Of a stretch of 64,000 bases of DNA, positions 48,939-49,006 are shown piece after piece (the first letter of the stretch is position 1; every line of letters starts with the position of its first letter). The position numbers and the translations under genes are program-made. The DNA lies in the sequence record MK327935.1; one strand, given 5' to 3'. The DNA comes from Escherichia phage vB_EcoM_G2494. The notes beneath the pieces were generated by a model that was given only the letters and a program-made list of their open reading frames with translations, did not search any database and was not told where the DNA came from.

Positions 48939-48946
48939 AAGTCATT

Positions 48947-48987
48947 CCCCCAGATTGAAAATATTCAATTATATTTATAATCTGGGG
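48947..48987 (-). promoter_or_regulatory. late promoter (TATAAATA) embedded in RBS-sequestering stem-loop
   Basis: 9-bp inverted repeat CCCCAGATT/AATCTGGGG; TATAAATA at 5' arm/loop junction; 3' arm overlaps the SD of ORF 48636..48938. Confidence 0.45.
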
Positions 48988-49006
48988 CTTTATTTATGAT
49001 TAACTC

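Follow-up and report, generated by a model that had tools for sequence, protein, structure and literature searches.

The spacer between tk and rI in the phage examined here would form a two-state leader for the antiholin gene rI, and the hairpin within it, which carries a T4-type late promoter, probably gates the translation of rI in the manner known for the e/soc/I-TevI class of T4 genes. The anatomy and stability of this hairpin, the conservation and covariation of its helix, the invariance and register of its TATA box and an energetic equivalence to the leader of T4 gene e are observed directly in the 64-kb stretch of DNA analysed (hereafter, the window), its relatives and the computed folds. 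The hairpin and the flanking genes all lie on the minus strand and must be read on that strand. From the tk stop codon onwards the minus strand reads GAGTTAATCATAAATAAAG CCCCAGATT ATAAATATAATTGAATATTTTC AATCTGGGG GAATGACTT ATG, and the features along it, with coordinates in the window, are as follows.

49007–49603, minus strand: tk (thymidine kinase; Pfam PF00265, E 9.6e-52)
48991–48998, minus strand: CATAAATA, a late-promoter-like motif with one mismatch, directly 5' of the hairpin
48987 to 48979, minus strand: 5' arm of the hairpin, CCCCAGATT (sequence, repeat search, fold, conservation and covariation)
48979 to 48972, minus strand: TATAAATA, T4-type late promoter box (motif scan; box as defined in PMC1524935 and PMC2988020)
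48966, minus strand: predicted late +1, a G (from TATAAATA taken as -13 to -6, PMC1524935, and from the alignment)
48956 to 48948, minus strand: 3' arm of the hairpin, AATCTGGGG (sequence, repeat search, fold)
48951 to 48947, minus strand: GGGGG, the G-run of the SD, 8 nt before the AUG
48930–48947, minus strand: second small hairpin, GAAUGAC-UUAU-GUCAUUU (-6.0 kcal/mol)
48938, minus strand: ATG of rI
48636–48938, minus strand: rI, antiholin and lysis-inhibition regulator of 100 aa (Pfam PF24205, E 4.6e-23)
48251–48649, minus strand: rI.-1 (DUF5856; Pfam PF19174, E 9.8e-21; phrog_858)
47993–48020, minus strand: intrinsic terminator with a 12-bp stem and a T-run (terminator scan; also a perfect hairpin)

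The two arms, 22 nt apart, constitute a perfect 9-bp inverted repeat, and the repeat search confirms the original prediction that such a repeat lies between tk and the ORF at 48636–48938. The same search returned extended arms of 17 nt at 88% complementarity with a loop of 6 nt, the extension running through an inner AAAUAU/AUAUUU stem. The late promoter box that had been placed at the opening of the loop is present, but it shares its first T with the end of the 5' arm, which leaves ATAAATA in the loop proper. Overlap of the 3' arm with the SD of the downstream gene is borne out, four of the five G's lying within the arm and hence in the stem. The predicted late +1, G48966, falls within the loop and 3' of the 5' arm, giving a leader of 28 nt, and an RNA begun there lacks the 5' arm, as had been anticipated for transcripts from the late promoter. 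Around this position, TGAA at -1 to +3 is kept in most relatives in the alignment.

The second small hairpin, a feature missing from the original prediction, encloses the AU of the rI start codon within its loop and is invariant among the relatives. It stays in the late RNA, and in the read-through RNA it stacks on the first hairpin. A function for the CATAAATA motif is doubtful. It occurs only in the RB49-like subclade and is missing from the L007, L017 and L018 clades, and an RNA begun from it (at about C48985) would retain seven of the nine nucleotides of the 5' arm. Cleavage by RegB was ruled out, the leader being without GGAG or GGAU. Scans of the window for Rfam families (at the gathering threshold) and for tRNAs returned none at or near the hairpin.

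The gene downstream of the hairpin, described in the original prediction as encoding a secreted protein and left without an identity there, is assignable to the T4-type periplasmic antiholin rI by its protein family, by the tk/rI/rI.-1 synteny and by its N-terminus. The match to PF24205 scores 81 bits (cut-off 27), and the protein also matches phrog_1246, the PHROG family 'lysis inhibition', with E 6.9e-25. A weak but specific match was found to the solved T4 antiholin (PDB 6PSK, E 0.009). The N-terminus, MSFIRKTLTAAICLTAVGSVSA, is a hydrophobic export segment, and the orthologous gene is annotated as rI in RB49, JSE and others. The second gene of the unit, rI.-1, overlaps the end of rI, and judging from its sequence the strong terminator at 48020–47993 would close the rI/rI.-1 unit.

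Every ORF of at least 110 aa in the window is encoded by the minus strand. The region is 95–99% identical to 57 Krischvirus genomes, among them RB49, JSE, Phi1 and ECD7, an identity by which the window phage is classed as a Krischvirus (RB49-like). Krischvirus phages are without rI.1. Several variations on the locus were seen in relatives. In L041, a metagenomic RB49-like contig, rI is split at 1001–1302 into ORFs of 60 and 40 aa. The split is due either to an error of assembly or to a frameshift, which would make this a natural r-type mutant; the hairpin in the leader of this contig is intact with unchanged arms, and its loop is one T shorter. In L009, a gene at 71–853 for a 260-aa protein with a NUMOD3 domain (homing-endonuclease-like) replaces the small ORFs directly upstream of tk. 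Relatives L006–L019 carry an ORF of 706–713 aa with no Pfam match after rI.-1, where the window has the terminator and small ORFs.

The hairpin alone has a computed stability of -18.4 kcal/mol. A region of 91 nt folds at -25.5 kcal/mol compared with -11.8 ± 2.8 in shuffled sequences (z = -4.84), and none of 200 shuffles folded as well. Perfect hairpins of at least 9 bp with loops of 3–30 nt number 20 in the window against 7.3 ± 2.8 in dinucleotide shuffles, and those of the same class with at least five G+C number 10 against 0.78 (maximum 3) in 200 dinucleotide shuffles. The GC-rich perfect 9-bp hairpins are therefore enriched about 13-fold and are a selected class, of which the tk–rI hairpin is a member. 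Chance placement of one such hairpin in the tk–rI spacer of about 70 nt amounts to roughly 1 in 1000. The window has three occurrences of the TATAAATA octamer itself, all of them on the minus strand; with 5.8 expected in the window, this count is not above chance.

Accessibility of the SD in read-through and late RNA was computed with the same script for rI of the window and, as a positive control, for T4 gene e. Read-through rI RNAs of 117, 207 and 307 nt, starting 70–260 nt upstream, gave identical values: the probability of the SD being unpaired is 0.022, and the cost of opening is 14.1 kcal/mol for the SD and 21.6 (about 22) kcal/mol for the segment from the SD to +13. This computed fold agrees with the proposal that read-through RNA folds the SD into the stem. 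In the late RNA with its 28-nt leader the probability rises to 0.224, and the opening costs fall to 3.3 and 9.2 kcal/mol, respectively. For T4 gene e, the corresponding values are 0.000, 13.8 and 16.0 kcal/mol in the read-through RNA and 0.296, 4.2 and 6.3 kcal/mol in the late RNA. By this model the two leaders are quantitatively alike in computed SD opening; in T4 gene e, sequestration reduces lysozyme synthesis about 100-fold (PMC3014915). The late rI TIR is calculated to be eased yet only partly open, the start-codon hairpin persisting and the SD being unpaired with a probability of 0.22.

Conservation was assessed in 15 distinct tk–rI spacers from RB49, one IMG/VR contig, Shigella phage JK32 and metagenomic contigs, in which RI is 72–100% identical to that of the window (72–96% for the contigs). 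IMG/VR yielded a single relative, and L029 was left out as it has only 10 nt upstream of rI. Mean pairwise identity over the 15 sequences is 0.58 in the tk-proximal spacer, 0.90 in the 5' arm, 1.00 in the TATA box (8 of 8 columns invariant), 0.70 in the rest of the loop (11 variants, with lengths that differ by 1–3 nt), 0.97 in the 3' arm and 0.96 in the segment from the SD to the start codon. The TATAAATA box keeps the same register in all 15. A metagenome scan whose search pattern placed no constraint on either arm found three loci, with the arms unchanged in every one. T4 late promoters consist of the 8-bp box and an AT-rich segment downstream, with no conserved upstream element (PMC2988020), and promoter function thus leaves the conservation of CCCCAGAT unexplained.

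The most divergent lineage, L028, has the arms CCCCTAAGTT and AACTTGGGGG, with TATAAATA in identical register. Relative to the window, AGATT/AATCT has become AAGTT/AACTT, which corresponds to two compensatory pair swaps and one U·G pair. Over the alignment, 96% of the cells of helix 1 are paired, two pairs have changed on both sides, and two further changes are one-sided (G·U or extension). The observed covariation is reached by 3 of 500 shuffles and gave 0 in slid controls. This pattern argues that the helix is kept by selection, with the compensatory changes all coming from the one lineage, L028; a second protein search, starting from a divergent RI, yielded no new lineages, and the covariation still comes from L028 only. 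In several clades a fifth C (in one clade a sixth) produces a 10-bp stem that covers the whole G-run.

The stop codon of tk (TAA, 49009–49007) is followed by the stem after 19 nt in the window, and the distance ranges from 11 to 19 nt among relatives. In the window phage a terminating tk ribosome should not melt the stem. In clades whose stop codon lies 11–13 nt from the stem, terminating ribosomes might open it in part, and in the L018 clade they might reach its base.

These observations suggest the following mechanism. Early RNA from promoters upstream of tk would contain both arms and fold into the hairpin of -18 kcal/mol with the SD in its 3' arm; stacking of this long hairpin on the start-codon hairpin would block 30S subunits, and RI would not be made. 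In the replication-coupled late phase, gp55-RNA polymerase would use TATAAATA and initiate at about G48966 in the loop. The resulting mRNA, with a 28-nt leader and no 5' arm, would present a largely single-stranded SD, from which rI, together with rI.-1, would be translated, the transcript ending at the terminator at 48020–47993. In consequence RI would be made exclusively, or with a strong bias, in the late period, at the time at which holin T is present. We infer the start of gp55-RNA polymerase at the box, the read-through from tk and the difference in translation between the two RNAs. A candidate source of early RNA is a predicted, near-consensus sigma-70-like promoter 2.1 kb upstream (51109–51081; 11 of 12 positions, TTGACA-17-TATGAT with an upstream TG); the terminator scan predicted no strong terminators between this promoter and the hairpin. 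RI is very short-lived, so that early synthesis would be wasted. Holin T, the target of RI, is a late protein (PMC6832632).

Set against late-only RI is the finding that rI.1 of T4 shows no such SD sequestration when analysed with the same script. Early transcription of rI is also reported for T4, where an early promoter lies 3.3 kb upstream of the operon (PMC2962797), and together these points indicate that late-only RI is not a general requirement for lysis inhibition. Of the late-only translation originally proposed, a strong late bias is sustained by the computed SD accessibility; strict confinement to the late period exceeds the data.

Control of this class is well documented for e, soc, 49 and I-TevI of T4, and it extends to certain free-standing homing endonucleases such as Aeh1 mobE and T4 segB (PMC3014915). 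In T4 e, a hairpin of the early transcript hides the TIR, and the late promoters lie within it (PMC3014915). As in rI of the window, the helix that pairs with the SD has a late TATAAATA within or beside its 5' strand, late RNA lacks that strand, and the gene belongs to the lysis pathway. The two differ in that e encodes the endolysin and has two late promoters and a short-loop helix over both SD and AUG, whereas the antiholin gene of the window has one clear promoter, a 22-nt loop, and a long helix that holds the SD only, with the AUG in a separate hairpin. RB49-type phages are reportedly without gene e (PMC3014915). With I-TevI, soc, 49, mobE and segB the rI leader shares the blocking of translation of read-through RNA by structure and its relief in late-promoter RNA, but those are mobile-element or capsid-decoration genes, and none is a regulator of lysis timing. 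The likeness to the e, soc and I-TevI control drawn in the original prediction stands in all of its sequence-level consequences, the change in SD opening equalling that of T4 e.

This control is known for other T4 genes and has apparently not been reported before for rI. A literature search whose reach did not extend to the original RB49 paper found no description of an rI leader hairpin and no Krischvirus or RB49 transcript map, transcript data or protein data; in the main review of the control class (PMC3014915), rI, holin and lysis inhibition are absent.

In T4, rI.1, rI and rI.-1 form an operon that is served by the distant early promoter and by a late one located between tk and rI.1 (PMC2962797). 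The locus is orthologous to that of the window and syntenic with it (tk, rI, rI.-1), with TATAAATA soon after tk and a small start-codon hairpin. It differs in that rI.1 stands between promoter and rI and that SD accessibility is equal in read-through and late RNA, whereas Krischvirus, which is without rI.1, carries instead the long hairpin that sequesters the SD. TATAAATA was found at the homologous junction in T4, Karamvirus PG7, Muldoonvirus VP8, Serratia phage 4S, Gualtarvirus MP1 and Slopekvirus Miro, and in none of these six did the same script detect a difference in SD accessibility between read-through and late RNA. In T4 and MP1 the junction contains the promoter alone. A GC-rich, terminator-like hairpin with a U-run lies wholly 5' of TATAAATA in PG7 (940–965), VP8 (about 915–950), 4S (about 895–935) and Miro (1030–1062). 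These four resemble the window in having a GC-rich hairpin that adjoins TATAAATA, presumably with the same outcome of late rI, but their hairpin does not touch the SD, and control would be transcriptional there and translational in Krischvirus. Late rI transcription looks ancestral, with the SD clamp as the arrangement adopted by the Krischvirus clade.

Several genera have a small hairpin, differing in sequence between them, whose loop encloses the AU of the rI start codon. In T4 it is formed by GAGGCC/GGCCUU (-10.4 kcal/mol, z -3.5); in VP8 it reaches -10.7 kcal/mol (z -3.3), and in 4S, MP1 and Krischvirus -9.8, -9.4 and -8.3 kcal/mol, respectively. Miro lacks this hairpin, and PG7 and AC4 have a weak form of it. 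The 3' arm corresponds to codons 2–4, the encoded residues of which differ (MAL, MSL, MVL, MGP, MSF), and the arms covary with these codons in T4, VP8, 4S, MP1 and Krischvirus. Where rI.1 is present, the SD forms part of the 5' arm, a placement suggestive of coupling to the translation of rI.1. A conserved, layered RNA control of the rI TIR across T4-like phages, to which Krischvirus would have added a long-range SD clamp, is a speculative reading that we regard as rather improbable. If the start hairpin were regulated, the lysis-inhibition decision would be made partly at the level of RNA, with the amount of the unstable RI sensor set at translation; the hairpin could then open through translational coupling to rI.1 or under a condition linked to superinfection or slow growth.

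The terminator-like hairpins of PG7, VP8, 4S and Miro, directly 5' of TATAAATA at the homologous junction, make stopping early and restarting late a common solution at tk–rI-type junctions, and a terminator based on ARNOLD is annotated at this place in phage G37-3 (174–213 of its locus). On this model the hairpin of the window could serve mainly to form the 3' end of tk mRNA in the early period, acting on the sense strand as a terminator or as a barrier to 3' exonucleases, with the late promoter merely restarting transcription for rI and the SD pairing incidental. Such a role is compatible with the gating of rI translation, and as the principal one we consider it unlikely. The stem is followed by GAAUGACUUAUG, with no U-tract, and the loop is 22 nt long (or the stem is interrupted); the terminator scan passed over this hairpin while finding the terminator at 48020–47993. 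In the window the hairpin encloses the promoter and has the SD itself as its 3' arm, an arrangement not shared by the other genera. The fifth C-G pair added in several clades falls exactly over the last base of the SD, and the energetics of opening match those of T4 e. The missing U-tract led us to reject termination on the sense strand as the hairpin's main role. An opposite orientation is implied by the record of TB34, in which two plus-strand terminators are annotated (166–214 of its locus); the TB34 and G37-3 annotations thus sit on opposite strands, and both are automated predictions. On the plus strand the stem does run into a U-rich tract, CUUUAUUUAU, and most relatives have an A-rich tract ahead of the 5' arm on the sense strand. 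That the palindrome is an intrinsic terminator for plus-strand transcription is nevertheless highly improbable. Given that all ORFs of at least 110 aa and all three TATAAATA boxes are on the minus strand, there is nothing obvious to terminate, and the 22-nt loop is atypical of a terminator. In the L018 clade the tract after the stem is UAAAAUUUU, a poor U-tract. The one-sided U·G changes of L028 and JK32 would become A·C mismatches in an antisense RNA; they are tolerated only in sense RNA, which points to the sense transcript as the structured molecule.

The number of TATAAATA occurrences, being within chance expectation, and the 95–99% identity of most database relatives would both be accounted for if the arrangement were a functionless inverted repeat beside an AT-rich octamer, conserved through close kinship alone. 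We find this scarcely conceivable in view of the 13-fold enrichment of GC-rich perfect 9-bp hairpins over shuffles and the compensatory changes in L028. The arms and the TATA box are moreover conserved where mean identity drops to 58% in the spacer and 70% in the loop, and a late promoter is kept at the tk–rI-type junction across six genera.

A second device of the kind proposed for rI was observed at 18795–18840 on the minus strand of the window. Here TATAAATA (18826 to 18819) lies inside a perfect 9-bp AU-rich hairpin, AATGTATAT...ATATACATT, directly before GGAGG-ATG of a gene at 17971–18795 that matches an HNH homing endonuclease (phrog_12434, E 5e-131). An extended helix pairs with the SD of this leader, and the probability of the SD being unpaired is 0.108 in the read-through RNA and 0.876 in the predicted late RNA. 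The third TATAAATA (59171 to 59164, minus strand; whole region approximately 58985–59171) overlaps the stop codon of a 72-aa ORF. Beyond it lie about 170 nt without a convincing ORF, which end in a perfect hairpin, AAGCCACUC-UUCG-GAGUGGCUU, and a U-run. This stretch folds at -61.1 kcal/mol (z -3.26) and returned no Rfam family at threshold and no tRNA. By analogy, it may represent a small structured RNA driven by the late promoter and comparable to T4 RNA C/D.

RI is the periplasmic sensor and antiholin that chooses between timely lysis and lysis inhibition in T-even-type infection, and the timing and amount of RI therefore set the timing of lysis. The mechanism is a textbook one and the conceptual gain is modest; the rI leader would add a lysis regulator to the short list of genes gated by late-promoter hairpins. 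The conserved junction would in addition display three interchangeable solutions, namely a promoter alone, a terminator followed by a promoter, and a promoter inside an SD clamp. The 5' arm offers a clean and easily mutated handle on the question of whether RI made early does harm or serves no purpose. RB49-like phages are in wide use in collections for phage therapy, which gives the control of their lysis timing some practical relevance. Krischvirus phages appear to restrict the synthesis of RI to late mRNA by means of the RNA device that T4 uses for its endolysin.
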